Positions 2,904 through 63,522 of a stretch of DNA of 64,000 nucleotides are shown piece by piece. The translations under genes were made by a program, and so were the position numbers. The notes under the pieces are model-generated. The model was not told the DNA's origin and did not search any database. It worked only from the letters and a program-made list of their open reading frames with translations. How positions within the stretch are numbered: the stretch's first letter is position 1; each line of letters starts with the position of its first letter. This stretch comes from Escherichia coli (GTDB lineage Bacteria > Pseudomonadota > Gammaproteobacteria > Enterobacterales > Enterobacteriaceae). The stretch is taken from assembly GCF_046105845.1 (NCBI RefSeq), contig NZ_CP151004.1. One strand, 5' to 3'.

Positions 2904-3656
2904 ATGGCTGTAACTAAGCTGGTTCTGGTTCGTCATGGCGAAAGTCAGTGGAACAAAGAAAACCGTTTCACCGGTTGGTACGACGTGGATCTGTCTGAGA
3001 AAGGCGTAAGCGAAGCAAAAGCAGCAGGTAAGCTGCTGAAAGAGGAAGGTTACAGCTTTGACTTTGCTTACACCTCTGTGCTGAAACGCGCTATCCATAC
3101 CCTGTGGAATGTGCTGGACGAACTGGATCAGGCATGGCTGCCCGTTGAGAAATCCTGGAAACTGAACGAACGTCACTACGGTGCGTTGCAGGGTCTGAAC
3201 AAAGCAGAAACCGCTGAAAAGTATGGCGACGAGCAGGTGAAACAATGGCGTCGTGGTTTTGCGGTGACTCCGCCGGAACTGACTAAAGATGATGAGCGTT
3301 ATCCGGGTCACGATCCCCGTTACGCGAAACTGAGCGAGAAAGAACTGCCGCTAACGGAAAGCCTGGCGCTGACCATTGACCGCGTGATCCCTTACTGGAA
3401 TGAAACTATTCTACCGCGTATGAAGAGCGGTGAGCGCGTAATCATCGCTGCACACGGTAACTCGTTACGTGCGCTGGTGAAATATCTTGATAACATGAGC
3501 GAAGAAGAGATTCTTGAGCTGAATATCCCGACTGGCGTGCCGCTGGTTTATGAGTTTGACGAGAACTTCAAACCGCTGAAACGCTATTATCTGGGTAATG
3601 CTGACGAGATCGCGGCGAAAGCAGCGGCCGTTGCAAACCAGGGTAAAGCGAAGTAA
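2904..3656 (+). CDS. gpmA: 2,3-bisphosphoglycerate-dependent phosphoglycerate mutase
   Basis: 250 aa from ATG 2904 ([17 protein letters not shown]...); the ORF-track TTG start at 2889 is rejected as an upstream extension; RHGE histidine phosphatase motif. Confidence 0.96.
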
Positions 3657-5171: not shown

Positions 5172-5552
5172 ATGAAAATGACAAAACTGGCCACACTATT
5201 TTTGACTGCCACTCTAAGCCTTGCCAGCGGTGCCGCACTGGCTGCCGATAGCGGAGCGCAAAGCAATAACGGCCAGGCAAACGCCGCAGCTGATGCGGGC
5301 CAGGTAGCCCCTGATGCCCGTGAAAATGTCGCGCCAAATAACGTCGACAATAACGGGGTAAATACCGGTTCTGGCGGCACAATGCTGCATCCGGATGGTT
5401 CTTCAATGAACAATGACGGCATGACCAAAGATGAAGAGCACAAGAACACCATGTGCAAAGATGGTCGCTGTCCGGATATCAATAAAAAGGTACAAACTGG
5501 TGATGGCATCAACAATGATGTCGATACCAAAACCGACGGTACCACGCAGTAA
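5172..5552 (+). CDS. ybgS: secreted/periplasmic protein YbgS
   Basis: 126 aa with signal peptide, Asn/Gly/Asp-rich; matches E. coli YbgS. Confidence 0.9.
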
Positions 5553-5665
5553 CCCTGCGAAATAGCCAATAATTGGAGAGCGGAGTCTCTCCCTTTTAAT
5601 TTTTCCCTTCTAAAAGCAGTATGATGTCATAAAGTTAAGTGAGAATAATTAAGGGATGACTCGTC

Positions 5666-6607
5666 ATGGCGCACTCACACTCACACACTTCCTCACACCT
5701 GCCAGAAGATAATAATGCTCGTCGCTTGTTGTATGCTTTCGGCGTGACTGCCGGGTTTATGCTCGTAGAAGTCATTGGTGGTTTTCTTTCCGGTTCTCTG
5801 GCATTGCTGGCCGATGCGGGTCATATGTTGACCGATACTGCCGCCCTGCTTTTCGCCCTACTCGCAGTGCAATTTTCCCGTCGTCCTCCCACCATTCGCC
5901 ACACTTTCGGTTGGCTAAGATTGACCACGCTCGCGGCGTTTGTGAATGCCATCGCCCTGGTGGTGATTACTATTTTGATTGTCTGGGAGGCGATAGAACG
6001 CTTCCGCACTCCGCGTCCGGTCGAGGGCGGCATGATGATGGCAATTGCCGTGGCTGGGCTGCTGGCAAATGTACTTTCTTTCTGGTTACTTCATCACGGC
6101 AGCGAAGAGAAAAACCTCAACGTGCGAGCAGCGGCACTGCATGTGCTCGGGGACCTGCTGGGTTCGGTTGGAGCTATTATTGCCGCGTTGATTATTATCT
6201 GGACCGGCTGGACGCCTGCTGACCCCATTCTCTCAATACTGGTGTCGCTTCTGGTTCTGCGTAGCGCGTGGCGACTGTTGAAAGATAGCGTGAATGAATT
6301 ACTTGAAGGTGCACCGGTATCGCTGGATATCGCCGAACTGAAGCGTCGTATGTGCCGGGAAATCCCGGAAGTCCGCAATGTGCACCATGTACATGTATGG
6401 ATGGTAGGCGAGAAGCCGGTGATGACGCTGCATGTGCAGGTGATCCCGCCACACGATCACGATGCCTTGTTAGATCAGATCCAACACTACCTGATGGATC
6501 ACTATCAGATTGAGCACGCCACTATTCAGATGGAATATCAACCTTGTCATGGGCCAGACTGCCACCTGAATGAAGGGGTGTCTGGCCATTCACATCATCA
6601 CCATTAA
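5666..6607 (+). CDS. zitB: zinc efflux cation-diffusion-facilitator transporter
   Basis: 313 aa, His-rich N and C termini ([11 protein letters not shown]...GHSHHHH), CDF family; matches E. coli ZitB. Confidence 0.95.
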
Positions 6608-7323
6608 TGGGACAGCGCGCGTGAACCTCTTTCGCGTGCGCTGTTGATCCACATCCGGCTGCCGTTGAGGGCAATAAAGGTCAGGATGATGTACTCCAGA
6701 GACATGGCGTAAACGCCCTGAAGTGCAAAAATAACGACGCTAATCACGTTAATAATCACCCACAACAGCCAGTTTTCCACATACTTACGCGTCATCAGAA
6801 TCATTGCCACGATAGATAACACCATCATGCAGGAATCCCAGAACGGGAAAGCGTCCGGTTGCAGTTCAGGCATCGCAACCTCTAATCCTAATGCTTGCAT
6901 GATCATGACTGCCACGCGGGTCAAAAATGCAAATACCGGATTGATAAATACCGTCATCAGACCAATCGAGACAACGCAAACCGCTAACCAGCTTAGCGCC
7001 TTCGGCAATGGCAACCAGCGAATTTTCAACTCCGCCTCGTTCTGACTGGTTTGTCGCGACCACGCATACCAGCCGTAAATATTCGCGGCAAAGAAAAACA
7101 TCTGTAATAGCAGGCTGGCATACAGCTGAATCTGAAAGAAAATAATGCCAAACAAGGTGACGTTGATCAGGCCAAAGAAGTAGTTGCTGATCTTCTCCAG
7201 ACTGGCAAGGCCAATACACAGCAACCCAGCGATCGTGCCTACCGCTTCGATCCATGAGAGATCATAACCGCCTGCTCCTATTGGTATATGTACCAGAATA
7301 TTCTGCACACTAAAAAAATCCAT
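6604..7323 (-). CDS. pnuC: nicotinamide riboside transporter
   Basis: 239 aa, matches E. coli PnuC; 3' end overlaps the zitB 3' end by 4 bp (convergent). Confidence 0.95.
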
Positions 7324-8647: not shown

Positions 8648-8776
8648 ACATTGGTGGGTCGTGCAGGATGACTCGCTTCGCTCGCCCTACGGGCCGTCGC
8701 CGCGAGCGGCTCCGTTATTTCGCTGCGCTCAACTCGAACCTGCTGCAGGTTCGAATCTTTGAGTATCGCAGATAGC

Positions 8777-8803
8777 AAAAAAGCGCCTTTAGGGCGCTTT
8801 TTT
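8777..8803 (-). terminator. rho-independent terminator immediately 3' of lysQ
   Basis: Same hairpin plus T-run as 8621-8647, directly downstream of the last tRNA-Lys. Confidence 0.65.
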
Positions 8804-8807
8804 ACAT

Positions 8808-8883
8808 TGGTGGGTCGTGCAGGATTCGAACCTGCGACCAATTGATTAAAAGTCAACTGCTCTACCAACTGAGCTAACGACCC
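8808..8883 (-). tRNA. lysQ: tRNA-Lys (anticodon UUU)
   Basis: Minus-strand sequence is the canonical E. coli tRNA-Lys GGGTCGTTAGCTCAGTTGGTAGAGCAGTTGACTTTTAATCAATTGGTCGCAGGTTCGAATCCTGCACGACCCACCA, including CCA. Confidence 0.97.
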
Positions 8884-8916
8884 CTTGCGGGATTATGCTG
8901 CTTTAATCATTCAGGA

Positions 8917-8992
8917 TGGTGGGTCGTGCAGGATTCGAACCTGCGACCAATTGATTAAAAGTCAACTGCTCTACCAACTGAGCTAACGACCC
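8917..8992 (-). tRNA. lysZ: tRNA-Lys (anticodon UUU)
   Basis: Identical 76-nt tRNA-Lys copy. Confidence 0.97.
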
Positions 8993-9040
8993 ATACGGGT
9001 GTTACCTGAAAGATTTCTACTCGGAACCAATCTTTAAAAT

Positions 9041-9110
9041 TGGTGGGTCGTGCAGGATGACTCGCTTCGCTCGCCCTACGAGCCGTTGCTGACGCAACGT
9101 TATCCTTCAC
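9041..9110 (-). repeat. spacer repeat containing an 18-nt tRNA-Lys 3'-end fragment
   Basis: tggtgggtcgtgcaggat (3' end of tRNA-Lys) followed by gactcgcttcgctcgccctacg...cgttgctgacgcaacgttatccttcacg; a near-identical unit recurs at 9534-9607 and a diverged one at 8652-8760. Confidence 0.6.
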
Positions 9111-9138
9111 GCTTAACATCTGAGTTTGATGTTAAAAT

Positions 9139-9214
9139 TGGTGGGTCGTGCAGGATTCGAACCTGCGACCAATTGATTAAAAGTCAACTGCTCTACCAAC
9201 TGAGCTAACGACCC
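9139..9214 (-). tRNA. lysY: tRNA-Lys (anticodon UUU)
   Basis: Identical 76-nt tRNA-Lys copy. Confidence 0.97.
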
Positions 9215-9217
9215 GAG

Positions 9218-9293
9218 TGGTGGGTGATGACGGGATCGAACCGCCGACCCCCTCCTTGTAAGGGAGGTGCTCTCCCAGCTGAGCTAATCACCC
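9218..9293 (-). tRNA. valZ: tRNA-Val (anticodon UAC)
   Basis: Minus-strand sequence GGGTGATTAGCTCAGCTGGGAGAGCACCTCCCTTACAAGGAGGGGGTCGGCGGTTCGATCCCGTCATCACCCACCA, canonical tRNA-Val(UAC). Confidence 0.97.
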
Positions 9294-9344
9294 GATACTG
9301 CGCTGGATACTACAAACTACTTCCACCGAACCCACCGTAATTAG

Positions 9345-9420
9345 TGGTGGGTCGTGCAGGATTCGAACCTGCGACCAATTGATTAAAAGTCAACTGCTCT
9401 ACCAACTGAGCTAACGACCC
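9345..9420 (-). tRNA. lysW: tRNA-Lys (anticodon UUU)
   Basis: Identical 76-nt tRNA-Lys copy. Confidence 0.97.
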
Positions 9421-9422
9421 GG

Positions 9423-9498
9423 TGGTGGGTGATGACGGGATCGAACCGCCGACCCCCTCCTTGTAAGGGAGGTGCTCTCCCAGCTGAGCTAATCACCC
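9423..9498 (-). tRNA. valT: tRNA-Val (anticodon UAC)
   Basis: Identical tRNA-Val(UAC) copy, 2 nt after lysW. Confidence 0.97.
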
Positions 9499-9533
9499 GA
9501 TACTACGCTGGATACTACAACTAACTAGGTTAG

Positions 9534-9607
9534 TGGTGGGTCGTGCAGGATGACTCGACTTCGTCTCGCCCTTCGGGCCGTTGCTGACGCAACGTTATCC
9601 TTCACGT
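9534..9607 (-). repeat. spacer repeat containing an 18-nt tRNA-Lys 3'-end fragment (second copy)
   Basis: Same truncated tRNA 3' end plus shared spacer sequence as 9041-9110. Confidence 0.6.
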
Positions 9608-9633
9608 TTTACTACCGCTTCCACCTTAGCGAT

Positions 9634-9709
9634 TGGTGGGTCGTGCAGGATTCGAACCTGCGACCAATTGATTAAAAGTCAACTGCTCTACCAACTGAGC
9701 TAACGACCC
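9634..9709 (-). tRNA. lysT: tRNA-Lys (anticodon UUU), first gene of the operon
   Basis: Identical 76-nt tRNA-Lys copy; promoter-proximal position in the minus-strand operon. Confidence 0.97.
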
Positions 9710-9873
9710 ACTTTTTCGTTGCTTTCGGTTTGTTTGATATCCCGTGGCAACGGCGGCATATATTACTGATTTCAGACTTGAGCGCAACAAAAATTTCGAT
9801 GTAGATCACTCAACTGCTTATGATTCGCACGACACGACCAGAAATAATGCGACTTCTGGTCGTGTGTTATGCA

Positions 9874-19643: not shown

Positions 19644-20588
19644 ATGAGTCCTGATAATATCAGTTCTGCTGTCAATCGCTTCTCAGGTTGGCCATCTAAT
19701 AATCCTCTAAAAACAGATAACGAATCAATGACATCACCCATGACTGTGCAGGTAATAAAGATGATTGCCGCCATCCTTGACCCACATCGGATAGTCGTTG
19801 GAATCGATACACTTTATACAACGCAGCGCGAAACATTTACCTCAGAGAGTCAACAGCTCATTGAATCAGCATTGCAAACACTTCATGTGATGAATTTAAA
19901 TAACCTGGAAACAAATCTCGATGAGGAAGGTCACTATCTGGCTTTTGGATATAACGTTGACACTCCTGACAGAATAACCGTTTCTGCTTATAATGAAAAA
20001 AAGCCTGGCTGCTATGGCCAATGTCTTTTAATACAGGATGACGAAACAGACTTATTTAACCTGATAAAAGTTAAAATTTTTGAAGCCAGGCATAATTATG
20101 TCGCTCAATTGATGAGCGATCCGGAATTTATGTTCAAATTTAGTTATAGCGCTCAACAAAATAGATTAGAACCTCATCTTCTGGTTCCCACTTATTTCCC
20201 TCTAAAAACAAACGAACCGGTTACGCAAGAGGATGTACTGTTACTTTATCGTTTCTTTAAAATGGATGGTGATTTTAATATATTAACATCAGATGAATAC
20301 ATGAGTATCATGACACCTCTGATGAAGTGTGAGCGCAGCATCCACGACCACAACAGGTATGTGACGGGCAAAGATACCCTTCTTCTGGACTATCCTCCTT
20401 CTGGTAACCAGATATATTTCCATATTTTTCCTGACGAATCAGCAACACTAGTCCTTTATTTTTCAAACAATGACATTGAATGTTTCGTCTTTGAAAGAGA
20501 TATTCCGAGCCAGTATCGCTTTTTCAAAATGTTTACCAATCTGGCACTGGTTATTGATCAGTTAACCGATGCCAATCAAATACTTTAA
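19644..20588 (+). CDS. hypothetical protein, no recognisable family (orphan island gene A)
   Basis: 314-aa ORF with a GAGG RBS 7 nt upstream; markedly AT-rich (24 G+C in the first 60 nt); Ser/Asn/Pro-rich N-terminus. Confidence 0.7.
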   Translation: MSPDNISSAVNRFSGWPSNNPLKTDNESMTSPMTVQVIKMIAAILDPHRIVVGIDTLYTTQRETFTSESQQLIESALQTLHVMNLNNLETNLDEEGHYLAFGYNVDTPDRITVSAYNEKKPGCYGQCLLIQDDETDLFNLIKVKIFEARHNYVAQLMSDPEFMFKFSYSAQQNRLEPHLLVPTYFPLKTNEPVTQEDVLLLYRFFKMDGDFNILTSDEYMSIMTPLMKCERSIHDHNRYVTGKDTLLLDYPPSGNQIYFHIFPDESATLVLYFSNNDIECFVFERDIPSQYRFFKMFTNLALVIDQLTDANQIL

Positions 20589-20668
20589 TTTTTATATATT
20601 CTCTGTGGCAAATATTGCTAAACAATGCCCGGGGATTAATTTTTATTACTCACGGAAAGATTTAAATA

Positions 20669-21091
20669 ATGATCCCATCTCAAATCTCTTTCAACACCCT
20701 TCCTGTCAATGCAACATACGCTTCAGAGACAACAGTTGACACACAAAAATTCTCTGACATCCTCTACTCAGCGGGGTGTTCCCTAAAGGATCTGGCTTAT
20801 CTGAGCAGATGTCTGGCATCAATACATCCGACTATCGCCAAAAACATTTATGAAACAGAAAATCTCAGCGATCAAAAATTACTACATATTGATTGCCGTA
20901 GTACAAATGAAATCAAGATAAATATCTTTTTTGGTCAACAACGAGAAGGATTAATTGAAATTAGTTCTGACACAGTCATTTTTTCGATACTGTCTTCATT
21001 GATTGACTCCACCATTTCTAAATTTCAACACCAAAACCCCGTTAACGGTTCTGTAAATCCTGGCCTATTGTATGAGGATTATACTGATTAA
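20669..21091 (+). CDS. hypothetical small acidic protein (orphan island gene B)
   Basis: 140-aa ORF 80 bp downstream of gene A on the same strand; AT-rich; about 16 Asp/Glu versus 9 Lys/Arg by count. Confidence 0.65.
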   Translation: MIPSQISFNTLPVNATYASETTVDTQKFSDILYSAGCSLKDLAYLSRCLASIHPTIAKNIYETENLSDQKLLHIDCRSTNEIKINIFFGQQREGLIEISSDTVIFSILSSLIDSTISKFQHQNPVNGSVNPGLLYEDYTD

Positions 21092-21638
21092 ATCCCTCCT
21101 GTCGCGAAAAATGGCCTGCGTTATTGCCAGACGTAATAAAACTTTTGATTAACGTTTCTCGTACTGGTAGCACTTTCATGTACTTTTCTTTTTTACGAAA
21201 AATCAAAAGAGCTAACAAAGGTCATAATTCGCATGAATCATTAATTATTTGTTATTTTCAACATTATTTTTACATTAAGCAGAGATGAATTGCAGTGAAA
21301 TTCGACTTAACTTTTACGAAATGCATTTACTCATGGCTAAAGCCACGTCACAAAAATGCAAATTAGAAGTTGATCACAATTATCTCAATACATCAAATCA
21401 AGTTAATTTTAAAAATTTAACATTCATGACATTAGTTGACATAACACACTGAATTAAAATGAGAATTTGGAAACACACTTTAAACAATCATTTCCCGAAA
21501 GACATTTTGAAAATAGATCAATTGCAACATTACGGTCAGATAAAGACACTCCTGTGATATTAAACCTGTGCCGTTATGAACGGCCATAAATACGGCGTGT
21601 GTAACTTATTTTACTCTCTGTCTTACAAAGGATTACCC

Positions 21639-22088
21639 ATGAAGAAAGCAACACTTGTGATTGGCGTTATTGGCGCGGACTGCCATGCAGTAGGCAATAA
21701 AGTTCTGGACCGCGTTTTTAGCAACCATGGCTTCAGAGTCATTAATCTGGGCGTAATGGTCAGCCAGGACGAATATATTGATGCTGCCATTGAAACTGGC
21801 GCTGACGCGATTGTCGTCTCCTCTATCTATGGGCATGGCGATATCGACTGTCTGGGCATGCGCGAACGCTGCATCGAGCGTGGGCTGGGTAACATCCTGC
21901 TCTATGTGGGCGGTAACCTGGTGGTCGGAAAACATGACTTCGCTGACGTGGAAACCAAATTCAAAGAGATGGGATTTGATCGCGTCTTTTCCCCAAGTCA
22001 TGACTTAGAAGATGTTTGTCAGCTGATGGCCCACGATATCAACCAACGTCATGACGTTGATACTCGTATTCTTGAAGAGGCAATCTGA
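21639..22088 (+). CDS. glmS: glutamate mutase (methylaspartate mutase) small S subunit, cobalamin-binding; clostridial GlmS/MutS, not glucosamine-6-P synthase
   Basis: 149 aa from [24 protein letters not shown] with AAGGA RBS; DxHxxG B12-binding motif; strong similarity to Clostridium MutS/GlmS as I recall it; ORF-track start at 21576 rejected. Confidence 0.9.
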
Positions 22089-23476
22089 TGCAAATCGTCT
22101 CTGTCGATATTGGATCGACGTGGACCAAAGCAGCCCTCTTCGCCCGGGAGGGGGACGCGTTAACGTTGGTTAACCACGTACTGACCCCAACCACCACCCA
22201 TCATCTGGCGAAGGGGTTTTTCTCCAGCCTGAACCTGGTGTTAAACGTAGATAATGCCCTCCCCCTGTTTAACAGCGGTGAGGTTGCATTGAAGTATTCC
22301 TCCTCTGCCAAAGGTGGGCTGGCGGTTGCCGCAATGGGATTGGTGCCTTCTATCACCCTGGAAACCGCGAAAGTAACCGCTCACTCTGCGGGTGCTAAAA
22401 TTGCGCAATATTACGCCTACAAGCTGAACCGTCGTGATATCCAGGCACTGGAAGAAACGCAGCCCGATATTCTCTTGTTCACCGGCGGCACCGATGGCGG
22501 AGAAGAAAGCTACGGACTGAATAACGCCCGTGTGTTGGCAGAATCCAAACTCGACTGCGCCATTATTTATGCCGGAAACCGGGATATTCAGGACGAGGTG
22601 CAGGAGATCCTCGGGCATAAAGACCTGACCATCGTCGACAACGTTCTGCCCGATCTTGACCATCCGAACCCTTTAGCTGCACGCCAGGCTATCTGCGACA
22701 TATTCCTTAAACGCATCGTTAAAGGGAAAGGGCTGGATGTCGTTGTTGATAAAACAGGCGAAGAACCAATGCCGACACCGTGGACAGTCTTTGAACTGGT
22801 TAAGGCAATCAGTAATGTCGATCACAGCTGGAAAGAGTTCATGCTGATCGACATGGGTGGCGCAACCACCGATGTCTATTCCGCCTGTGCCAACACGCTC
22901 TCGCCCGACACCGTTTTACACGGCGTACCGGAACCCTTCGTGAAACGGACGGTGGAAGGCGATCTGGGAATGCGCGTCTCGGCAATGGTGGTTGGTGAAA
23001 GTGCGAAAGAGTTAGTCAATGTGAATTTTGCTCAGCAACCCGCACAGCTGGACGCTTTTTATCATTACCTCCGTCATCTAGTCGCTCATCCCGACTACTT
23101 ACCCGCGAATGCAGAAGAAAAATATTTCGATACCGTCCTGGCCGGACTGTGTGTGGGTTATGCCACCGAAAGACATGCGGGCACCAAAAAAGAGGTCTGC
23201 ACCTGCGTCGGCAATGTCGATTTACAGATGGGACGTGACCTGACAACCGTGCGTAAAGTCGTCGGATCCGGCGGATGGCTCTCGCGTGCCAGTCAGTTCG
23301 ATATGCATCACTGGTTGAAATACCGCGAGTTAAACGACGACGGTAAACGCATTCTCTTACCGACCGAATTTGAATATTACCGCGATTCCCGGGGGCTATT
23401 ACCACTGCTGGCAAACGTCGCCAGAGTCGATCCGCTGGCCGCCGCGCGCACCAGTATTCAATGCTTAACCCTATAA
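22088..23476 (+). CDS. glmL: glutamate mutase-associated protein GlmL/MutL (putative mutase reactivase/chaperone)
   Basis: 462 aa; start overlaps the glmS stop (TGATG); N-terminus IVSVDIGSTWTKAALF is an ASKHA-like ATPase fold motif; conserved position between the S and E subunit genes. Confidence 0.85.
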   Translation: MQIVSVDIGSTWTKAALFAREGDALTLVNHVLTPTTTHHLAKGFFSSLNLVLNVDNALPLFNSGEVALKYSSSAKGGLAVAAMGLVPSITLETAKVTAHSAGAKIAQYYAYKLNRRDIQALEETQPDILLFTGGTDGGEESYGLNNARVLAESKLDCAIIYAGNRDIQDEVQEILGHKDLTIVDNVLPDLDHPNPLAARQAICDIFLKRIVKGKGLDVVVDKTGEEPMPTPWTVFELVKAISNVDHSWKEFMLIDMGGATTDVYSACANTLSPDTVLHGVPEPFVKRTVEGDLGMRVSAMVVGESAKELVNVNFAQQPAQLDAFYHYLRHLVAHPDYLPANAEEKYFDTVLAGLCVGYATERHAGTKKEVCTCVGNVDLQMGRDLTTVRKVVGSGGWLSRASQFDMHHWLKYRELNDDGKRILLPTEFEYYRDSRGLLPLLANVARVDPLAAARTSIQCLTL

Positions 23477-23494
23477 CAATTAAGGCTGCAATCA

Positions 23495-24940
23495 ATGGAA
23501 CTTCGAAATAAGAAATTAACCCATGACGAATTCATGACCGAGCGGCAACAGGTACTGAAAACCTGGGAAACCGGCAAGGATGTTGAAAACTTTGAAGATA
23601 GCGTTAAATACCAACAAACCATTCCTGAGCATAAACGCTTCTCTCTTGCGCTGTTGAAAGCAGACAAGGAAGGTAAAACCCTTAGCCAACCGCGCGCAGG
23701 TGTGGCGCTGATGGACGAACACATCGAACTACTGAAAACACTACAAGAAGAGTGCGATCTGCTGCCGAGCACTATCGATGCATATACCCGTCTGAATCGG
23801 TACGAAGAAGCGGCTGTAGGGATTAAAAAATCCATCGAAGCCGGAACCTCTAAACTGAACGGTTTGCCGGTAGTTAACCATGGCGTCGCAGCTTGCCGTC
23901 GCCTCACCGAAGCCCTGCAAAAACCGCTACAGATCCGCCACGGCACGCCAGATGCGCGTCTGCTGGCTGAAATCTCGATGGCCAGCGGCTTTACCAGTTA
24001 TGAAGGCGGCGGCATTTCCTACAATATTCCGTATGCCAAGCGCGTAACGCTGGAAAAATCGATCCGCGACTGGCAGTACTGCGACCGTTTAATGGGGATG
24101 TATGAAGAACACGGGATCCGCATCAACCGCGAACCGTTTGGCCCACTAACGGGTACGCTGATCCCGCCGTTTATCTCGCACTCTATCGCGATAATCGAAG
24201 GATTGCTGGCACTGGAACAGGGTGTGAAATCTATCACCGTTGGTTATGGCCAAGTCGGCAGCCTGACGCAGGATGTTGCGGCGATCCAGTCTCTGCGTGA
24301 ACTTGCACACGAATATTTTCAGAGCTATGGCTATACCGACTATGAATTGAGTACCGTGTTTCACCAGTGGATGGGCGGCTTTCCGGAAGACGAATCGAAA
24401 GCGTTCGCTATTATCTCCTGGGGCGCAGCCGTCGCGGGGATGTCTGGTGCCACCAAAGTCATCACCAAAAGTCCGCACGAAGCCTGGGGAATCCCGACTG
24501 CCGCTGCCAACATTCAGGGGCTGAAAGCCTCCCGCCAGATGCTCAACATGGTCAATGAGCAGAAATTCCCGCCGTGCCCTGCGGTTGAACTGGAAATTGA
24601 ACTGATTAAGAGCGAGGTTCGCGCGGTACTGAATAAAGTGTTCGAACTGGGTAATGGTGATATTGCGCGCGGTACGGTGCTGGCATTTGAAGCGGGCGTA
24701 CTGGATGTGCCGTTTGCGCCAGCCGCCTGCAACGCGGGCAAAATTCTTCCGGTCCGTGACAACACCGGCGCGATACGCGTACTGGAAGCCGGAGCCGTTC
24801 CATTGCCAAAAGATATTCTCGACCTCCACCACGATTACGTTGCGGAACGCGCACGCTTTGAAGGACGCCAACCGACATTCCAGATGGTTGTAGATGACAT
24901 CAATGCTGTATCCCACAGTAAATTAATAGGAAGACCATAA
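23495..24940 (+). CDS. glmE: glutamate mutase (methylaspartate mutase) large E subunit
   Basis: 481 aa; long collinear similarity to Clostridium GlmE/MutE (MELRNKKLT...QPRAGVALMDEHIELL...HQWMGGFPEDESKAF...). Confidence 0.93.
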   Translation: MELRNKKLTHDEFMTERQQVLKTWETGKDVENFEDSVKYQQTIPEHKRFSLALLKADKEGKTLSQPRAGVALMDEHIELLKTLQEECDLLPSTIDAYTRLNRYEEAAVGIKKSIEAGTSKLNGLPVVNHGVAACRRLTEALQKPLQIRHGTPDARLLAEISMASGFTSYEGGGISYNIPYAKRVTLEKSIRDWQYCDRLMGMYEEHGIRINREPFGPLTGTLIPPFISHSIAIIEGLLALEQGVKSITVGYGQVGSLTQDVAAIQSLRELAHEYFQSYGYTDYELSTVFHQWMGGFPEDESKAFAIISWGAAVAGMSGATKVITKSPHEAWGIPTAAANIQGLKASRQMLNMVNEQKFPPCPAVELEIELIKSEVRAVLNKVFELGNGDIARGTVLAFEAGVLDVPFAPAACNAGKILPVRDNTGAIRVLEAGAVPLPKDILDLHHDYVAERARFEGRQPTFQMVVDDINAVSHSKLIGRP

Positions 24941-26181
24941 TGAAAATAAAACAGGCCCTGTTCACCGCTGGCTATTCCTCATTCTATTTCGATGACCAGC
25001 AGGCGATAAAAAACGGAGCGGGTCACGACGGCTTTTTTTATACCGGGGAGCCAGTAACACAGGGGTTTAACGCCGTACGTCAGGCCGGGGAGTGCGTATC
25101 GGTACAGTTGATTCTGGAAAACGGCGCGGTCGCCGTAGGTGACTGTGCTGCCGTACAGTATTCCGGGGCAGGTGGTCGCGATCCACTGTTCCTCGCGGAG
25201 CACTTTATTCCGTTCCTCAACGACCATATCAAGCCATTACTGGTAGGCCGCGATGTGGATGCTTTCCTGCCGAATGCCCGTTTCTTCGACAAATTGCGTA
25301 TTGACGGCAACTTGCTGCATACCGCCGTGCGCTACGGATTATCACAGGCGCTGCTTGATGCTACCGCGCTGGCAACCGGCCGTCTGAAAACTGAAGTGGT
25401 CTGTGATGAATGGCAGTTGCCACGCGTGGCGGAATCCATTCCATTATTTGGTCAGAGCGGCGACGATCGATATATCGCCGTCGATAAGATGATCCTTAAG
25501 GGCATCGACGTGCTGCCCCATGCGCTGATTAATAACGTCGAAGAGAAGCTGGGCTTTAAAGGTGAAAAACTGCGCGAATATGTCCGCTGGCTGTCGGATC
25601 GTATTCTGAGCAAGCGCACCAGCGCACGCTACCACCCTACCCTGCACATCGATGTATACGGCACTATCGGTCTGATCTTCGATATGGATCCGCTTCGCTG
25701 TGCGCAATACATCGCCAGCCTGGAAAAAGAAGCGCAAGGCCTGCCGCTCTACATTGAAGGGCCGGTCGATGCCGGTAACAAGCCCGATCAAATTCGCCTG
25801 CTGTCCGCGATTACCAAAGAGCTGACGCGCCTCGGTTCCGGCGTGAAAATTGTGGCCGATGAATGGTGTAACACCTACCAGGATATTGTTGATTTCACTG
25901 ATGCCGCCAGTTGCCACATGGTGCAAATCAAAACCCCGGATCTGGGCAGTATTCACAACATCGTCGATGCGGTTCTTTACTGCAACAGCCACAGCATGGA
26001 AGCGTACCAGGGCGGCACCTGCAATGAAACTGATGTCAGTGCCCGCACCTGTGTCCACGTCGCCCTTGCCGCTCGCCCTATGCGTATGCTGGTAAAGCCA
26101 GGGATGGGCTTTGACGAAGGCCTCGATATCGTCTTCAACGAAATGAATCGTACTATCGCGCTGTTGCAGGCTAAGGATTAA
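24940..26181 (+). CDS. mal: 3-methylaspartate ammonia-lyase (beta-methylaspartase)
   Basis: 413 aa; start overlaps the glmE stop; strong similarity to Clostridium MAL (AGHDGF.YTG, CAAVQYSGAGGRDPLFLA, ADEWCNT, HMVQIKTPDLG); enolase-superfamily fold. Confidence 0.93.
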   Translation: MKIKQALFTAGYSSFYFDDQQAIKNGAGHDGFFYTGEPVTQGFNAVRQAGECVSVQLILENGAVAVGDCAAVQYSGAGGRDPLFLAEHFIPFLNDHIKPLLVGRDVDAFLPNARFFDKLRIDGNLLHTAVRYGLSQALLDATALATGRLKTEVVCDEWQLPRVAESIPLFGQSGDDRYIAVDKMILKGIDVLPHALINNVEEKLGFKGEKLREYVRWLSDRILSKRTSARYHPTLHIDVYGTIGLIFDMDPLRCAQYIASLEKEAQGLPLYIEGPVDAGNKPDQIRLLSAITKELTRLGSGVKIVADEWCNTYQDIVDFTDAASCHMVQIKTPDLGSIHNIVDAVLYCNSHSMEAYQGGTCNETDVSARTCVHVALAARPMRMLVKPGMGFDEGLDIVFNEMNRTIALLQAKD

Positions 26182-26184
26182 CAA

Positions 26185-27555
26185 ATGGCTCGTTCTTTTA
26201 AAGTCTTATCGCCAACGGCAATCCTCGGGTATGGATTCCCGGAAGAGAGCTTCCGCAAAGCGATGGCAGAATCGCCCGATCTGATCGCCGTTGATGCAGG
26301 CTCTTCCGATCCTGGCCCCCACTACCTCGGAGCGGGCAAACCGTTTACCGATCGCGCAGGGGTCAAGCGCGATCTGCGCTATATGATCACCGCAGGCGTG
26401 CAAAATAATATACCGGTGGTGATCGGAACGGCCGGCGGTTCTGGTGCCGCTCCACACCTGGAGTGGTGCCGAGAAATAATTCATGAGATTGCCCGGGAAG
26501 AGCACCTCTCGTTCTCGATGGCGCTGATCCCGGCAGACGTTGACAAAGCCATCGTCCACCAGGCGCTGGATAACGGCAAAATCACGGCGCTGGATTTTGT
26601 CCCGCCGTTAACCCACGACGCGATTGACGAAAGTACGTATATCGTCGCGCAAATGGGCATCGAACCCTTCCAGCAGGCGCTGAAAGAAGGCGCGCAAGTG
26701 GTGCTGGGCGGGCGCGCTTACGACCCGGCCTGCTTTGCTGCGCTACCGATCATGCAAGGCTTTGATGAAGGTCTGGCGCTGCATTGTGGGAAAATCCTTG
26801 AATGCGCGGCAATCGCCGCAACGCCCGGCTCAGGCTCTGACTGTGCGATGGGCATCATTGATGACAACGGCTTTACGCTGAAGACATTTAATCCGAAGCG
26901 TAAATTTACCGAAACGTCAGCAGCTGCACACACACTGTATGAGAAATCCGATCCCTACTTCCTGCCTGGACCTGGCGGCGTGTTGAACCTGAAAGACTGC
27001 ACATTTAAAGCGGTCAATGACGGCGAAGTGTACGTCAGCGGTTCTAAGCATGAAGAAACGCCGTATGCCCTGAAACTGGAAGGTGCACGACGGGTGGGCT
27101 TCCGCTGTCTGACCATCGCAGGAACGCGCGACCCGATCATGATCGCCGGGATCGATAAAATCATCGATGAAGTCAAAACCAGCGTTTCGCGTAACCTGTC
27201 GCTCGACGATGACAGCATTCACATCAATTTCCACCTGTACGGCAAAAACGGGGTGATGGGCGACCATGAACCGATGCAAACTGCCGGGCATGAGCTGGGG
27301 ATTGTCCTAGATGTAGTTGCGCCGACCCAGGAAATTGCCAACAGCGTTTGCTCGCTGGTGCGCTCTACTATGCTGCACTACGGCTATGAAAACCGCATCG
27401 CTACCGCAGGCAACCTGGCGTTCCCGTTCTCCCCTTCTGATATCCAGGGCGGGCCGGTATACGAATTTTCCATATATCACCTGATTGAAGCCAACGACGC
27501 TCTGCGTTTTGATTTCCATATTGAACAGGTGACGCCAGAAGGAGTTCAGGCATGA
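26185..27555 (+). CDS. uncharacterised protein, possibly DUF1446/AtuA-like family (assignment from memory, unverified)
   Basis: 456-aa ORF 3 nt after the mal stop in the same operon; Gly-rich motif GTAGGSGAAP; no enzymatic family recognised with certainty. Confidence 0.75.
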   Translation: MARSFKVLSPTAILGYGFPEESFRKAMAESPDLIAVDAGSSDPGPHYLGAGKPFTDRAGVKRDLRYMITAGVQNNIPVVIGTAGGSGAAPHLEWCREIIHEIAREEHLSFSMALIPADVDKAIVHQALDNGKITALDFVPPLTHDAIDESTYIVAQMGIEPFQQALKEGAQVVLGGRAYDPACFAALPIMQGFDEGLALHCGKILECAAIAATPGSGSDCAMGIIDDNGFTLKTFNPKRKFTETSAAAHTLYEKSDPYFLPGPGGVLNLKDCTFKAVNDGEVYVSGSKHEETPYALKLEGARRVGFRCLTIAGTRDPIMIAGIDKIIDEVKTSVSRNLSLDDDSIHINFHLYGKNGVMGDHEPMQTAGHELGIVLDVVAPTQEIANSVCSLVRSTMLHYGYENRIATAGNLAFPFSPSDIQGGPVYEFSIYHLIEANDALRFDFHIEQVTPEGVQA

Positions 27556-27869
27556 AACAGTCAATTGTCTCACTGGCGCAAGTCATTCGTTCGAAAAATG
27601 CCGGACCTTACGAACTGGTTTTAGATATTTTATTTAAAACCAAAGAAAACTATGAGCGAGTTAAATCATCAGGGCAATTAACCCCAGAACTGATCGCGCG
27701 CTTATATCATGTTGAACCTGACTTTATTCATCGTATTGTCTGGTTTGATCCTTCTAACGCAGTAAAAATCGTCATGCCACGAGATATTATCTCCGGGAAT
27801 GTAGGTGACAATGATGTCTATGGTGCACAGCAACATGCACCTTTATTAAATATGAGTTTCGATTTGTAA
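27552..27869 (+). CDS. small uncharacterised protein, possibly DUF4387-like partner of the preceding gene
   Basis: 105-aa ORF whose ATG overlaps the upstream stop (ATGA), indicating translational coupling. Confidence 0.7.
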   Translation: MKQSIVSLAQVIRSKNAGPYELVLDILFKTKENYERVKSSGQLTPELIARLYHVEPDFIHRIVWFDPSNAVKIVMPRDIISGNVGDNDVYGAQQHAPLLNMSFDL

Positions 27870-28029
27870 AAATCCGAATACTTTTAGCCAACTGACATCC
27901 CGTCACTTATTGCAGTTCAACACTTCAGCTATTTGTAAGGTTGTAATAGCAGGTAGATGCCTGAATCTCTATTCAGGCATCTACTTCTCCTGATTCTGAT
28001 TTATCGCCGTGCACCTGATGGAGGAAAAA

Positions 28030-29310
28030 ATGAAGAAAATAAGTTTAACCACGATGATTCTTTTGGCGCTGGTACTTGGAATGATTATCGGCGTAGTGCT
28101 CAATAACACTGCTTCACCGGAAACCGCAAAACTCTATGCGCAAGAAATATCGATATTCACGACGATTTTCTTACGACTGATAAAAATGATTATCGCTCCG
28201 TTAGTGGTCTCTACCCTGGTGGTAGGTATAGCTAAAATGGGCGATGCCAAAGCCCTTGGTCGTATTTTTTCTAAAACACTCTTTTTATTTATTTGCGCCT
28301 CATTGCTGTCAATTGCCTTAGGCTTGATAACAGTAAATTTCTTCATGCCAGGCACAGGAATTAATTTTGTTGCACACGGAGTCGAAACCACCGGAGTGGT
28401 CGCGTCAGAACCCTTTACGCTAAAAGTATTTATTTCGCATGCTTTCCCCACCAGCATTGTCGATGCCATGGCGCACAATGAAATTTTGCAAATCGTGGTG
28501 TTCTCAATTTTCCTCGGCTGTAGCCTGACGGCGATTGGCGAGAAAGGCAGCGCCATCGTTCACGCCTTAGATTCGCTGGCACATGCCATGTTAAAGCTCA
28601 CTGGCTACGTCATGCTCTTCGCTCCCCTGACCGTATTCGCTGCTATTTCAGCATTGATTGCTGAACGAGGACTGGCAGTTATGGTGAGCGCCGGGATCTT
28701 TATGGGTGAATTTTATTTCACCATGTTATTACTTTGGGTGCTGCTTATCGGTCTGGCCATCGTTTATGTCGGCCCCTGCATCAGACGCCTGACCCGCGCC
28801 CTTTCGGAACCCGCCCTGCTGGCATTTACCACATCCAGTTCTGAAGCGGCTTTTCCGGGAACGCTTGAAAAACTGGAGCAATTTGGCGTTTCCCCCAAAA
28901 TTGCCAGCTTTGTCTTACCCATTGGCTACTCATTTAATCTCGTTGGATCAATGGCCTACTGCTCCTTCGCCACAGTTTTCATCGCCCAGGCCTGCAATAT
29001 CCATTTATCCATCGGTGAGCAAATCACCATGCTGTTGATCCTGATGTTGACCTCGAAAGGAATGGCTGGCGTACCACGCGCCTCAATGGTGGTTATCGCC
29101 GCCACGCTCAACCAGTTCAATATTCCGGAAGCGGGGCTGATCTTGCTGATGGGCGTTGATCCGTTCCTTGATATGGGGCGTTCCGCGACAAACGTCATGA
29201 GCAACGCAATGGGCGCTGCGATGGTGAGTCGGTGGGAAGGCGAACATTTCGGCGAGGGCTGTCGGGGTAAAGCATTAAAACCCAATGAATCGAACGTTGC
29301 TCTGCCCTGA
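28030..29310 (+). CDS. dicarboxylate/amino acid:cation symporter (GltP/DctA family), probable glutamate or C4/C5-dicarboxylate importer
   Basis: 426 aa from MKKISLTTMILLALVLGMIIG with GGAGG RBS 6 nt upstream; multi-TM profile typical of the DAACS family; ORF-track GTG start at 28009 rejected. Confidence 0.85.
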   Translation: MKKISLTTMILLALVLGMIIGVVLNNTASPETAKLYAQEISIFTTIFLRLIKMIIAPLVVSTLVVGIAKMGDAKALGRIFSKTLFLFICASLLSIALGLITVNFFMPGTGINFVAHGVETTGVVASEPFTLKVFISHAFPTSIVDAMAHNEILQIVVFSIFLGCSLTAIGEKGSAIVHALDSLAHAMLKLTGYVMLFAPLTVFAAISALIAERGLAVMVSAGIFMGEFYFTMLLLWVLLIGLAIVYVGPCIRRLTRALSEPALLAFTTSSSEAAFPGTLEKLEQFGVSPKIASFVLPIGYSFNLVGSMAYCSFATVFIAQACNIHLSIGEQITMLLILMLTSKGMAGVPRASMVVIAATLNQFNIPEAGLILLMGVDPFLDMGRSATNVMSNAMGAAMVSRWEGEHFGEGCRGKALKPNESNVALP

Positions 29311-29417
29311 GGGGGATCTTAAGCAATCAGAAGCCAATGACTACGCATTTTTATAAGCCGGATCATGAAGTTAGACGGCAATTAAGTAACACTAACGTTT
29401 AAGGTGAAAAGTGAAAT

Positions 29418-31070: not shown

Positions 31071-31079
31071 GGAAAATGA

Positions 31080-31682
31080 ATGGAAGCGCGAATTTCAACT
31101 GAACGGCATGTGCAGCGCCAGCAGAAATTGAAGGAACAGGTCGATACGCGCGTCGCGGCGGCGATAGAGAAAAAAGGGATCTTGATTGTTTTCACCGGCA
31201 ACGGCAAAGGGAAATCCACTGCCGCGTTTGGTACTGTAACGCGCGCGGTGGGTCATGGCAAAACGGTGGGGGTTGCGCAGTACATCAAGGGGCAATGGGA
31301 CAACGGCGAATACAACCTTCTCCAGCCGCTGGGGGTTGAGTTTCATATTATGGGAACCGGTTTTACCTGGGAGACACAGAACCGGCAAGCGGATATCGAC
31401 GCGGCGAAAGAGGTCTGGTCGGAAAGCAAACGGATGCTGGCTGACAAGCGTTACGACTTAGTGGTGCTTGATGAGCTGACCTATATGCTGGCTTACCATT
31501 ATCTGGATACCGAAGAAGTGATCGCTTCTCTGCAAAACCGCCCGGCACAACAAAGTGTCATTGTCACCGGACGCGGTTGCCACAGTCAGATATTAAAAAT
31601 GGCGGATACGGTCAGCGAAATCCGCCCCGTCAAACATGCTTTTGATAACGGCATTCAGGCCCAGCCGGGTATCGACTGGTAA
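31080..31682 (+). CDS. cob(I)yrinic acid a,c-diamide / cob(I)alamin adenosyltransferase (BtuR/CobA/CobO family)
   Basis: 200 aa; GNGKGKSTAAFG P-loop and collinear similarity to E. coli BtuR; AAGGAAA RBS. Confidence 0.9.
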   Translation: MEARISTERHVQRQQKLKEQVDTRVAAAIEKKGILIVFTGNGKGKSTAAFGTVTRAVGHGKTVGVAQYIKGQWDNGEYNLLQPLGVEFHIMGTGFTWETQNRQADIDAAKEVWSESKRMLADKRYDLVVLDELTYMLAYHYLDTEEVIASLQNRPAQQSVIVTGRGCHSQILKMADTVSEIRPVKHAFDNGIQAQPGIDW

Positions 31683-31685
31683 TAA

Positions 31686-31717
31686 CTGCGCCTGGCATCC
31701 CGCCAGGCGCAGGTTTT
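31686..31717. terminator. bidirectional hairpin terminator between the operon end and the convergent LysR gene
   Basis: ctgcgcctgg-catcccg-ccaggcgcag stem-loop followed by tttt; overlaps the LysR stop codon on the other strand. Confidence 0.55.
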
Positions 31718-50292: not shown

Positions 50293-51339
50293 ATGCCAGT
50301 TTTGCAGTGGGGAATGTTATGTGTGCTATCACTTCTCCTTTCTATTGGTTTCCTCGCGGTACATCTCCCGGCGGCACTATTACTTGGGCCGATGATCGCC
50401 GGGATCATCTTTAGTATGCGCGGAATTACTCTGCAACTTCCCCGCTCCGCTTTTCTCGCCGCCCAGGCCATTCTTGGCTGCATGATTGCGCAAAACCTCA
50501 CTGGTTCGATTCTCACCACCCTGGCCGTCAACTGGCCGATCGTGCTTGCAATTTTACTGGTGACGCTGCTTTCCAGCGCCATCGTGGGTTGGTTATTGGT
50601 GCGCTATAGCTCACTGCCTGGAAATACCGGTGCCTGGGGTTCTTCTCCTGGCGGCGCGGCGGCAATGGTCGCTATGGCGCAAGATTACGGCGCAGATATT
50701 CGCCTGGTGGCGTTTATGCAATATCTGCGAGTGCTGTTCGTCGCAGGGGCCGCTGTTCTGGTCACCCGCATGATGCTGGGCGATAACGCTGAAGCGGTTA
50801 ACCAGCAGATCGTCTGGTTCCCGCCAGTGAGCATTAATCTCCTGCTTACGATTTTGCTCGCGGTCGTTGCCGGTACGGCGGGATGCTTGCTACGTCTTCC
50901 TTCCGGCACGATGCTCATCCCGATGCTGGCGGGCGCAGTGCTCCAGTCTGGTCAGCTCATCACGATTGAACTCCCGGAATGGCTGCTGGCGATGGCGTAT
51001 ATGGCAATTGGCTGGAGGATTGGTCTTGGTTTCGATAAGCAAATCTTACTGCGAGCATTGCGCCCACTGCCACAAATCTTGCTGTCGATTTTTGCTCTGC
51101 TGGCTATTTGTGCAGGTATGGCGTGGGGGCTGACCCGGTTTATGCATATTGATTTTATGACCGCCTACCTCGCCACCAGTCCCGGCGGGCTTGATACCGT
51201 GGCGGTCATCGCCGCAGGGAGCAATGCCGATATGGCGCTTATTATGGCGATGCAAACCCTGCGCCTGTTCAGTATTTTGCTGACGGGGCCAGCCATTGCG
51301 CGGTTTATTTCAACCTATGCGCCGAAGCGGTCGGCCTAG
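50293..51339 (+). CDS. abrB: AbrB-family membrane transporter (putative regulator of aidB expression)
   Basis: 348 aa from [20 protein letters not shown] with AGGGAG RBS; polytopic membrane protein; ORF-track start 26 codons upstream rejected. Confidence 0.9.
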
Positions 51340-52127
51340 TGCTGGCAGCCTGGACACCAGTAAAACGGGCGCGAGGACAACGTGGTTTTCTCAATGATGC
51401 TGCCACAGCGTTCACACGGTTCGCCATCACGATGAAAAACCTTAAAGCGAAACAACGCCCCATGATGTTTATTCTCATCCACCTGCCCCCGCGTAGCGTA
51501 AGAAAGTCGAGGAATATCCAGTAACGCGTGTGCGAGTGCATCCAGTTGCGCCGCACTGAGATCTTTCGCTTTATGATTGCCGGTTAACCCCACCTGCCAG
51601 AGGATCTCCACCCGCAAATAATTGCCAAGTCCTGCCAGAAACGCCTGATCGAGCAGTAATCCAGCAAACTGACGGTTACGAAAGCGCGGCGACAATAATC
51701 GTTCCTTTACCACCTCCGGCGTCAGATTCGGATCCAGCACATCGGGGCCAACGCGTTGTAAAAACGGATGCGTGGTCAGTTGTTCCGGGGTCAACATCTC
51801 AATATCCGAGGCGCTATAAAGCAGAATGGTTTTGTCAGCCGTTTGCAGTTTTACCCGCAATACTCGCGTGGTCTGCGGCTCTTCGCCGGTATCAACCACG
51901 CGCCAGACGCCGTAAAGCTGATTATGGCTGTAGAGCGTTAAACCGTTGGAAAAATGAGTTAACAACGCCTTACCTCGCGTTTCCACATGGGTAACGTGTT
52001 GACCGATAAGTTGTGATTGATAAGGTTCTAACTGCGGGAAGGCAAACCAGACATCAGTTAGTGGTTTGCCTTTGATCGCCGCCTCCAGGTTATCCGCTGC
52101 ACGGCGGATCTCCGGGCCTTCAGGCAT
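51336..52127 (-). CDS. nei: endonuclease VIII (DNA glycosylase/AP lyase)
   Basis: 263 aa; N-terminal MPEGPEI catalytic motif, C-terminal zinc finger CxxC...CxxC; 4-bp convergent overlap with abrB. Confidence 0.96.
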
Positions 52128-59680: not shown

Positions 59681-59770
59681 GTGAGTGCAGGCGTGATAGC
59701 CGGCGTGTTGCTGGTGTTTTTATTACTGGGTTATCTGGTTTATGCCCTGATCAATGCGGAGGCGTTCTGA
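59681..59770 (+). CDS. kdpF: Kdp ATPase small hydrophobic subunit KdpF (29 aa)
   Basis: GTG start 6 nt after GGAGG; [29 protein letters not shown]; stop overlaps the kdpA ATG. Confidence 0.85.
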
Positions 59771-61443: not shown

Positions 61444-61465
61444 TGATATTGAGTGAGCACTGAAT

Positions 61466-63514: not shown

Positions 63515-63522
63515 GGTTTACC

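Follow-up and report, generated by a model that had tools for sequence, protein, structure and literature searches.

That compact bacterial genomes give rise to four-base stop/stop overlaps between convergent genes is textbook knowledge. In the survey of Lillo and Krakauer 2007 (PMC2174442), the four-base motifs CTAA, TTAA, CTAG, and TTAG cause a sharp rise in the number of convergent overlaps of length 4; 1,890 convergent overlaps were found in 58 genomes, of which 1,218 were at least 5 nt long, so that 36% were 4 nt or shorter. For E. coli, 58 convergent overlaps were counted in that study, and 75 convergent overlapping pairs were reported by Huvet and Stumpf (PMC4161906). The terminators of convergently overlapping genes must sit in the coding sequence of the partner, and a terminator was predicted inside the partner CDS for 23 of 116 such E. 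coli genes (PMC2174442). The four tetramers, written together as YTAR, are the sole way for two stop codons to interlock in this register.

Bidirectional terminators and collision-driven termination have reportedly been described at convergent gene pairs, in work from 2019 attributed to Ju et al. According to Wang et al. 2022 (bioRxiv 10.1101/2022.10.23.513370), head-on polymerase collisions at convergent pairs require a stem-loop in the nascent RNA for their positioning. Dar and Sorek 2018 (PMC6061677) describe Rho-terminated E. coli mRNAs that end at stable stem-loops without U-tracts; these stem-loops guard against 3' exonucleases, and rut sites lie just downstream. Convergent excludons (concept of Sesto et al. 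2013; PMC12288877) are neighboring convergent genes with overlapping transcripts, and their defining outcome is mutually exclusive expression, with RNase III processing.

The window analyzed here, a stretch of 64,000 nt of E. coli DNA taken at its full length, contains two convergent junctions of the 4-bp type, zitB/pnuC and abrB/nei. At the level of the overlap, neither differs from the YTAR class (PMC2174442): both pairs have the same geometry, with only the stops interlocked, and are part of the length-4 spike, while pnuC/zitB is unusually stable across the whole family. Like bidirectional-terminator and collision systems, pnuC/zitB is convergent and has boundary stem-loops, which could position head-on collisions; unlike bidirectional terminators, it has two separate hairpins (here A and B), both in coding sequence and without U-tracts. 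CDS-embedded Rho-independent terminators (the 23 of 116 E. coli genes in PMC2174442) likewise place a hairpin in the coding region of the partner, but hairpins A and B have no U-tract. As with the Rho-dependent protective stem-loops of PMC6061677, hairpins A and B are stable, are not followed by U-rich sequence, and, as far as a composition heuristic can indicate, have C-rich sequence downstream; they differ in lying inside the CDS of the convergent partner. Both pairs share with convergent excludons the arrangement of neighboring genes with overlapping transcripts and are listed as such (PMC12288877); mutually exclusive expression would be a putative outcome for either pair, and the overlap here is perhaps only tens to hundreds of nucleotides.

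RESULTS

Only the stop codons of the convergent genes interlock

The window is a segment of the E. coli chromosome with the gene order gal–zitB–pnuC–nadA–tol/pal–cyd–suc/sdh–gltA–ybgOPQ–abrB–nei–pxp. With strain KE55 it shares 99.5% identity; relative to MG1655 it is collinear but inverted. The features of both junctions are collected in Table 1.

Table 1. Genes, interlocked stops, stem-loops, and C-rich tracts at the two convergent junctions (positions in the window)
Feature	Position	Strand	Description
zitB CDS	5666..6607	+	CDF-family zinc exporter, 313 aa; stop TAA 6605-6607; ORF and RefSeq annotation
Hairpin B	6552..6587	-	8-bp stem; + strand arms GGCCAGAC 6552-6559 and GTCTGGCC 6580-6587
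TTAA	6604..6607	none	Interlocked zitB/pnuC stops; read from sequence
pnuC CDS	6604..7323	-	Nicotinamide riboside transporter, 239 aa; stop TAA, reverse complement of 6604-6606; ORF and annotation; PDB 4QTN homologue
Hairpin A	6611..6645	+	15-bp stem 6611-6625 / 6631-6645, loop CCUCU
C-rich, G-poor tract	6708..6827	+	C/G 2.3-2.7 in 80-nt windows, zitB sense, 3' of hairpin A; candidate rut
abrB CDS	50293..51339	+	PF05145 membrane protein, 348 aa (RefSeq start); stop TAG 51337-51339
C-rich, G-poor window	50976..51055	-	C/G 2.33, 280-360 nt past nei stop, strongest in nei sense
CTAG	51336..51339	none	Interlocked abrB/nei stops; read from sequence
nei CDS	51336..52127	-	Endonuclease VIII, 263 aa; stop TAG, reverse complement of 51336-51338

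A preliminary description of the window had noted 4-bp convergent overlaps at zitB/pnuC and abrB/nei, and these are borne out by the sequence and by two annotations. The RefSeq annotation of KE55 has identical 4-bp overlaps at both junctions, and in MG1655 the overlaps are again 4 bp for pnuC (783166-783885) with zitB (783882-784823) and for nei (745935-746726) with abrB (746723-747769). The same description held that the genes share their last codons, which requires correction: the interlock is confined to the stop triplets, and the genes have no sense codon in common. The interlocked triplets overlap by 2 nt, and the outer nucleotide of each stop (1 nt) also serves as the wobble position in the last sense codon of the partner. 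At pnuC/zitB, the last sense codon is His CAT on both sides; with His CAY on either side, the proteins are the same whichever of the four YTAR variants is present. Both overlaps are without effect on either protein.

The TTAA and CTAG tetramers place both junctions in the YTAR class, formed by real genes with conserved C-termini. That the overlaps are annotation artefacts, with one gene of each pair truly ending earlier or later, is extremely improbable. The start of abrB is uncertain (the mechanical ORF opens at 50215 and the RefSeq start is at 50293), though its 3' end is untouched by this; the sequence leaves no ambiguity about the stop codons, clear homologues exist for each of the four proteins, and all four C-termini are kept in length and sequence across genera. 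The alignment of ZitB with human ZnT8 reaches through the C-terminal PDC motif, and phmmer leaves the last 38 residues of PnuC unaligned to 4QTN. The idea that the PnuC tail is a captured intergenic terminator, present as an enteric-only extension, was unsupported: a tail about as long is present in the Neisseria PnuC (4QTN, 244 aa).

An E. coli genome would carry approximately 21 to 27 such junctions of 4 nt or fewer, and approximately 0.3 to 0.4 would be expected per 64-kb window. At this inferred rate, the Poisson probability of two or more in a 64-kb window is approximately 4 to 6%. Two of the five convergent junctions in the window are of the 4-bp type (gaps of 165, -4, 33, -4, and 148). 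Two per window is unremarkable when many windows are scanned and is not more than chance. Both sites are ordinary, annotated members of a well-described class, and the pairs are already catalogued as transcript overlaps.

The two junctions differ in conservation

Conservation within E. coli was probed with the 201-nt sequence centered on each junction against 5,426 complete E. coli genomes, and both 201-mers gave one contiguous alignment in 5,423 to 5,424 of them. The pnuC/zitB junction was then compared in 80 species-level loci with close PnuC relatives from the Enterobacteriaceae and Erwiniaceae, including Escherichia, Citrobacter, Salmonella, Klebsiella, Enterobacter, Kosakonia, Kluyvera, Buttiauxella, Pantoea, and Erwinia. 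The convergent neighbor of pnuC was zitB in all 80. The junction was -4 in 67 species, 0 in 9, -7 (TCAGTGA) in 3, and +3 in 1, and the 67 species with -4 had the tetramers TTAA (42), TTAG (10), CTAG (8), and CTAA (7).

The nei/abrB junction was compared in eight nei locus look-ups outside E. coli, among which a 4-bp overlap (CTAA) was found in one Citrobacter locus only. The gap between nei and abrB is +54 in Salmonella enterica, whose spacer is a palindromic, REP-like insert; in C. amalonaticus it is +75, and in Intestinirhabdus it is +16. At the nei loci of K. pneumoniae, Kluyvera ascorbata, E. hormaechei, and Silvania, abrB is absent, and nei faces gltA or an MFS gene across a spacer of 84 to 116 bp; the nei/gltA spacer of Klebsiella and Kluyvera holds a textbook bidirectional terminator (AAAAAAACGCGCC…GGCGCGTTTTT). 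The length and tail register of AbrB are identical in E. coli and Salmonella, so the two differ in whether a spacer is there, and the stop has not shifted. The junctions differ in history: in the loci compared, pnuC/zitB is frozen family-wide, and nei/abrB is a labile version of the same geometry.

Two stem-loops flank the pnuC/zitB junction

Minimum free energies (MFE) were profiled in 50-nt windows across ±400 nt of the pnuC/zitB junction and averaged over the window and the 80 species (81 sequences). The two deepest minima of the mean MFE within ±400 nt are hairpins A and B, one on either side of the junction. Hairpin A begins 4 nt past the zitB stop (span of 4 to 38 nt), inside pnuC codons N227-S238. 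In zitB-sense RNA it has three G-U pairs and is more stable than in the pnuC sense, and the 81-nt stretch that contains it (6590-6670) folds at -31.3 kcal/mol (z of -3.27 against shuffles). Hairpin B lies 17 to 52 nt past the pnuC stop, within zitB codons G296-H308. Read in the pnuC sense it is GGCCAGAC…GUCUGGCC, and its stability is greater there than in the zitB sense. One arm of hairpin B encodes G296-P297-D298 and shares residues with the PDC motif (P297-D298-C299), which is alignable with the C-terminal end of human ZnT8. The second arm falls in the variable His-rich tail of ZitB.

The mean MFE of hairpin A was -22.0 kcal/mol in the zitB sense versus -19.2 kcal/mol in the pnuC sense, and that of hairpin B was -23.5 kcal/mol in the pnuC sense versus -20.4 kcal/mol in the zitB sense, over a background of -5 to -14 kcal/mol in the profile. 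Thus, each hairpin is stronger in the transcript whose stop codon it follows. Cells of the alignment that are not Watson-Crick pairs are distributed in the same direction: for hairpin A, 165 are G-U in the zitB sense versus 43 A-C (90 versus 43 when one invariant pair is left out), and for hairpin B, 60 are G-U in the pnuC sense versus 17 A-C. The Buttiauxella-like loci and Pantoea have other hairpins in the same place, AUGAGCAUGGNC…GNCCAUGCUCAU and GCGCAGCAYG…CGUGCUGCGC.

No Rfam family matched the pnuC/zitB hairpins at an E value of 1 or below. The stem of hairpin B was considered as a REP element, since some species have GCCGGAT...ATCCGGCC; this was rejected because the 3' arm encodes part of the ancient PDC motif of ZitB and because the E. 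coli version (GGCCAGAC) is not REP-like.

Covariation and synonymous recoding point to selection on the stem-loops

For hairpin B, pairing was found in 85.5% of cells versus 75.5% in column shuffles, and double-change cells numbered 62 versus 25.5 ± 3.8 in shuffles. The covariation score was 0.304 versus 0.147 in shuffles (0 of 500 as high), and slid partners scored at most 0.08. The covarying pairs join third codon positions of zitB (Gly3–Gly3, Pro3–Ser3, and Asp3–Val3), and parsimony on a neighbor-joining tree built from the rest of pnuC gave approximately 21 independent canonical-to-canonical double changes. Compensatory substitutions beyond sequence conservation, the mark of a conserved structured RNA, are therefore present in hairpin B. 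For hairpin A, 85.8% of cells paired (79 distinct sequences) versus 84.6% in shuffles, and covariation was near-absent because the sequence is too conserved. Protein constraint on the PnuC tail could account for much of the conservation of hairpin A.

A codon-aware test was also applied, in which the protein sequence was kept and synonymous codons were resampled (100 recodings for each of the 81 sequences). Relative to these recodings, the mean z was -1.68 for hairpin A and -1.78 for hairpin B, and 5 or fewer of 100 recodings were as stable as the observed sequence in 39 of 81 species for hairpin A and in 41 of 81 for hairpin B. Control regions 150 nt deeper in each gene gave z values of +0.28 and -0.03, with 3 to 4 of 81 species at that level. 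For the window itself, recodings as stable were 0 of 100 for hairpin A (significant) and 15 of 100 for hairpin B (not significant).

It is unlikely that the hairpins are by-products without RNA function, arising from amino-acid constraint and G+C-rich codon usage through the codon-palindromic PnuC tail SARERGSRA and the ZitB GPD...SG. Synonymously recoded tails do also fold well (means of -15.8 and -21.5 kcal/mol), hairpin A pairs almost as often in shuffles, and the GPD arm of hairpin B overlaps the PDC motif conserved to human ZnT8. A by-product would not, however, be expected to accumulate the compensatory changes of hairpin B, which fall mostly at synonymous third/third positions, or to beat recodings in 39 to 41 of 81 species when the controls do so in 3 to 4. 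Unrelated hairpins occupy the same position in clades with a different ZitB tail, and the G-U versus A-C asymmetry favors the downstream-of-own-stop sense for both hairpins. Taken across the family, these comparisons indicate that nucleic-acid structure is under selection, clearly for hairpin B and with weaker support for hairpin A.

Terminators, C-rich tracts, and published 3' ends

A scan of the window found no canonical intrinsic terminator at either junction, and none was found at pnuC/zitB in the Buttiauxella-type loci. The gpmA/aroG spacer of the same window contains a canonical A-tract/hairpin/U-tract element, and here, as at nei-gltA of Klebsiella and Kluyvera, the bidirectional terminator is one intergenic hairpin between A- and U-tracts. 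Hairpins A and B are followed by no U-tract (tails UGAUCC and CAUGAC) and hence lack the defining feature of intrinsic and bidirectional terminators. The preliminary description had stated that there is no room for terminators. This holds in that intergenic DNA is absent, but at pnuC/zitB two conserved stem-loops lie in the partner CDS. A stable stem-loop past the stop with no U-tract is present at pnuC/zitB and not at nei/abrB, where no conserved hairpin was found: the shuffle z was about 0, with nothing prominent at the junction. A single-species recoding test at nei/abrB was mildly positive (z of -2.75), a result that belongs to one species and is not generalizable.

Downstream of the pnuC/zitB stem-loops, the C/G ratio, used as a composition heuristic, is 2.3 to 2.7 at +100 to +220 in the zitB sense and 1.3 to 1.7 at +140 to +340 in the pnuC sense. 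On this compositional basis, the tract past hairpin A is a candidate Rho-loading (rut) region. Past nei, a bicyclomycin-sensitive Rho termination region was reported by Adams et al. (PMC7815308, supplementary file 2) at MG1655 747036(+), antisense to abrB, with a Rho score of 2.87 and a p value of 7.6e-5. The nei gene ends at MG1655 746726, which places this region approximately 310 nt past the nei stop, inside abrB, where it coincides with the C-rich window of C/G 2.33 (Table 1). At nei/abrB, Rho apparently does the clean-up of read-through.

The Term-seq tables of PMC7815308 list no 3' ends for zitB, pnuC, nei, or abrB, and the tables of that study report no Rho region at pnuC/zitB. None of these four genes is mentioned in the SMRT-Cappable-seq and TERMITe supplements.

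The transcripts overlap, and a regulatory role does not follow

Because there is no intergenic DNA, each transcript must end inside the partner gene and the two mRNAs must be partly complementary. Both nei-abrB and pnuC-zitB are entries in the ExcludonFinder catalogue (PMC12288877, NAR 2025) of 165 convergent excludons of MG1655, which were detected in 50% or more of 58 RNA-seq samples from that strain. The overlapping 3' UTRs proposed in the preliminary description are thus physically real, given the zero spacer, the excludon listing of both pairs, and the Rho region past nei (PMC7815308). The transcriptional interference that it further suggested may occur, but neither this nor antisense regulation is implied by the overlap. 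An excludon call is close to automatic for overlapping CDSs once both genes are expressed, and the published datasets reached contained no report of reciprocal regulation or mutually exclusive expression for either pair.

In Table S1 of Huang et al. (PMC7373196), as we understand its columns, the antisense/sense ratio of total RNA is approximately 0.3 to 0.5 for zitB and approximately 0.05 for pnuC, which fits greater read-through out of nadA-pnuC into zitB than the other way round. The same source gives moderate numbers of p19-captured dsRNA reads for pnuC and zitB (11 to 88 units, on the same understanding of the columns), and the only RNase III duplex that it lists for zitB is at the 5' end of the gene, not at the junction. 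Expression of all four genes in these tables (PMC7373196) is weak.

These data bear on a regulatory excludon, in which strong transcription of one gene would repress its partner by polymerase collision or by RNase III cleavage of the duplex, so that NAD salvage (nadA-pnuC) would be coupled to zinc efflux (zitB), and nei to abrB. The scoring of both pairs in at least half of the RNA-seq samples, the retention of the pnuC/zitB junction within -7 to +3 in 80 species, the relatively high zitB antisense RNA, and the dsRNA reads would all fit such a role. We nevertheless regard it as distinctly unlikely. Overlapping CDSs score as an excludon by construction upon any coexpression, the partners have no known functional link, and expression of the four genes is weak. 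The listed zitB duplex is at the wrong end of the gene, and hairpins right past each stop would limit, not promote, read-through. At the second junction, Salmonella, C. amalonaticus, and Intestinirhabdus lack the overlap, and Klebsiella, Kluyvera, and Enterobacter have no abrB at all; this lability, seen in the compared loci, argues against a selected regulatory role for nei/abrB.

A narrower proposal is that pnuC/zitB is a selected two-hairpin coding 3'-end module whose approximately 100-nt duplex couples the expression of NAD-precursor uptake and zinc efflux; we find this doubtful and give it little weight. In such a module, the C-terminal codons of each transporter would be shaped to encode the 3' stem-loop of the other gene, in the Enterobacteriaceae and Erwiniaceae alike.

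DISCUSSION

The explanation that we favor, with a probability of roughly three in four, is that both sites are ordinary YTAR overlaps whose transcripts end within the partner gene, served by coding hairpins at pnuC/zitB and by Rho at nei/abrB. RNA made past each stop is untranslated antisense of the partner gene and is a natural substrate for Rho. The intergenic spacer is zero, and the first antisense stop open to each reading frame is the one formed by the stop of the partner. In the absence of a spacer, RNA synthesis from each gene comes to an end within its partner.

At pnuC/zitB, the 3'-end signals would be written into the C-terminal codons of the partner, with hairpin A serving the zitB mRNA and hairpin B the nadA-pnuC mRNA, each followed by untranslated C-rich antisense RNA. 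Rho, head-on polymerase collision, or both would terminate transcription shortly downstream, and 3'-exonucleases would trim the transcripts back to the hairpins. The outcome would be two mRNAs with complementary 3' ends of approximately 100 nt, roughly 6550-6648. Hairpins A and B are likely to set and shield the 3' ends of the two mRNAs, and we infer that Rho acts at this junction. The positioning of collisions could be an alternative or additional role for the pnuC/zitB hairpins. At nei/abrB, which has no dedicated hairpin, Rho would end the read-through RNA a few hundred nucleotides into the partner. The consequences of the two overlaps for expression are likely to be small.

The overlaps themselves offer little that is new, as both pairs are already annotated and catalogued. 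The added value is modest and lies in the comparison of the junctions, with pnuC/zitB frozen family-wide together with two coding-embedded stem-loops. This junction is a clean natural example of 3'-end signals fitted into coding sequence when intergenic DNA is absent. It also carries a caution: "silent" sites in the C-terminal codons beside convergent junctions may be constrained.

Features at the zitB 5' end and at a third convergent junction

Published Term-seq data (PMC7815308, supplementary file 3) place the 3' end of ybgS at MG1655 784890(-), which is 67 nt upstream of zitB, and the terminator-like hairpin 3' of ybgS agrees with that end. A p19-captured RNase III duplex has been reported at the 5' end of zitB (MG1655 U00096.2 784002-784026; Huang et al. 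2020, Table S3, PMC7373196); in the window, this duplex would lie at about 5690-5710, near the zitB start. Its capture points to an antisense RNA across the zitB start, and that RNA would have no relation to the overlap at the 3' end.

A third tight convergent junction in the window is formed by cobO (ending at 31748) and a LysR-family gene (ending at 31782), with a gap of 33 bp. The stem-loop found here is located within the cobO coding tail and not in the spacer, and it may be another 3'-end hairpin embedded in a CDS. Both genes belong to a methylaspartate/mesaconate-pathway cluster that this strain carries in the cydA-sucD interval (about 19700-32700), together with a glmS/glmL/mutE-type methylaspartate mutase, methylaspartate ammonia-lyase, a class I fumarase, an AtuA-family protein, and a dicarboxylate symporter. 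The cluster is not known to occur in K-12 between cydA and sucD.

Features of the window and of the nei loci of relatives (window coordinates unless a locus is named)
Feature	Position	Strand	Remarks
Terminator-like hairpin and T-tract, 3' of ybgS	5575-5592	+	~67-75 nt upstream of zitB start
lysT-valT-type tRNA array	8653-9809		five tRNA-Lys, two tRNA-Val; downstream of nadA
RtT sRNA annotation	8653-9809		with the tRNA array
Stem-loop CTGCGCCTGGC…GCCAGGCGCAG	31686-31712	+	11-bp stem, 9 GC
Stem-loop AUGACCGCC…GGCGGUCAU	51156-51209	-	-27 kcal/mol; z -1.8 (marginal significance)
ISAs1 and IS630 transposase pseudogenes, degraded	~59200-64000		window end; transferred from annotation of E. coli KE55, offset ~215 bp
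Sel1-repeat gene and RHS core protein gene	~59200-64000		as preceding row
REP-like palindromic insert, …CTGATGGCGCGACGCTTATCAG…	L083 3293-3346		Salmonella enterica nei/abrB spacer; 54 bp
Canonical bidirectional terminator, nei/gltA spacer	L085 ~3340-3370		Klebsiella pneumoniae; A-tract, GC hairpin, T-tract
Canonical bidirectional terminator, nei/gltA spacer	L086 ~3355-3385		Kluyvera ascorbata; A-tract, GC hairpin, T-tract

The nei/abrB junction in E. coli and its relatives

Within E. coli, the nei/abrB junction region (51240-51440) was far more divergent than the pnuC/zitB junction region (6505-6705): of the 5,424 genomes compared, 3,301 showed 90-95% identity at the former, whereas all showed at least 95% identity at the latter. 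The stem-loop at nei/abrB lies inside abrB, 130-185 nt past the nei stop in the nei sense, between that stop and the published Rho region.

In K. pneumoniae and K. ascorbata, which lack abrB, nei is convergent with gltA across a spacer of 90-101 bp that holds the terminator; Kluyvera also carries a hok/gef-family gene upstream of nei. In S. enterica, the insert occupies the exact site of the E. coli CTAG overlap, and the AbrB tail has the same length despite it. With the tail unchanged, the junction states of Salmonella and E. coli therefore differ by gain or loss of this REP-like element.
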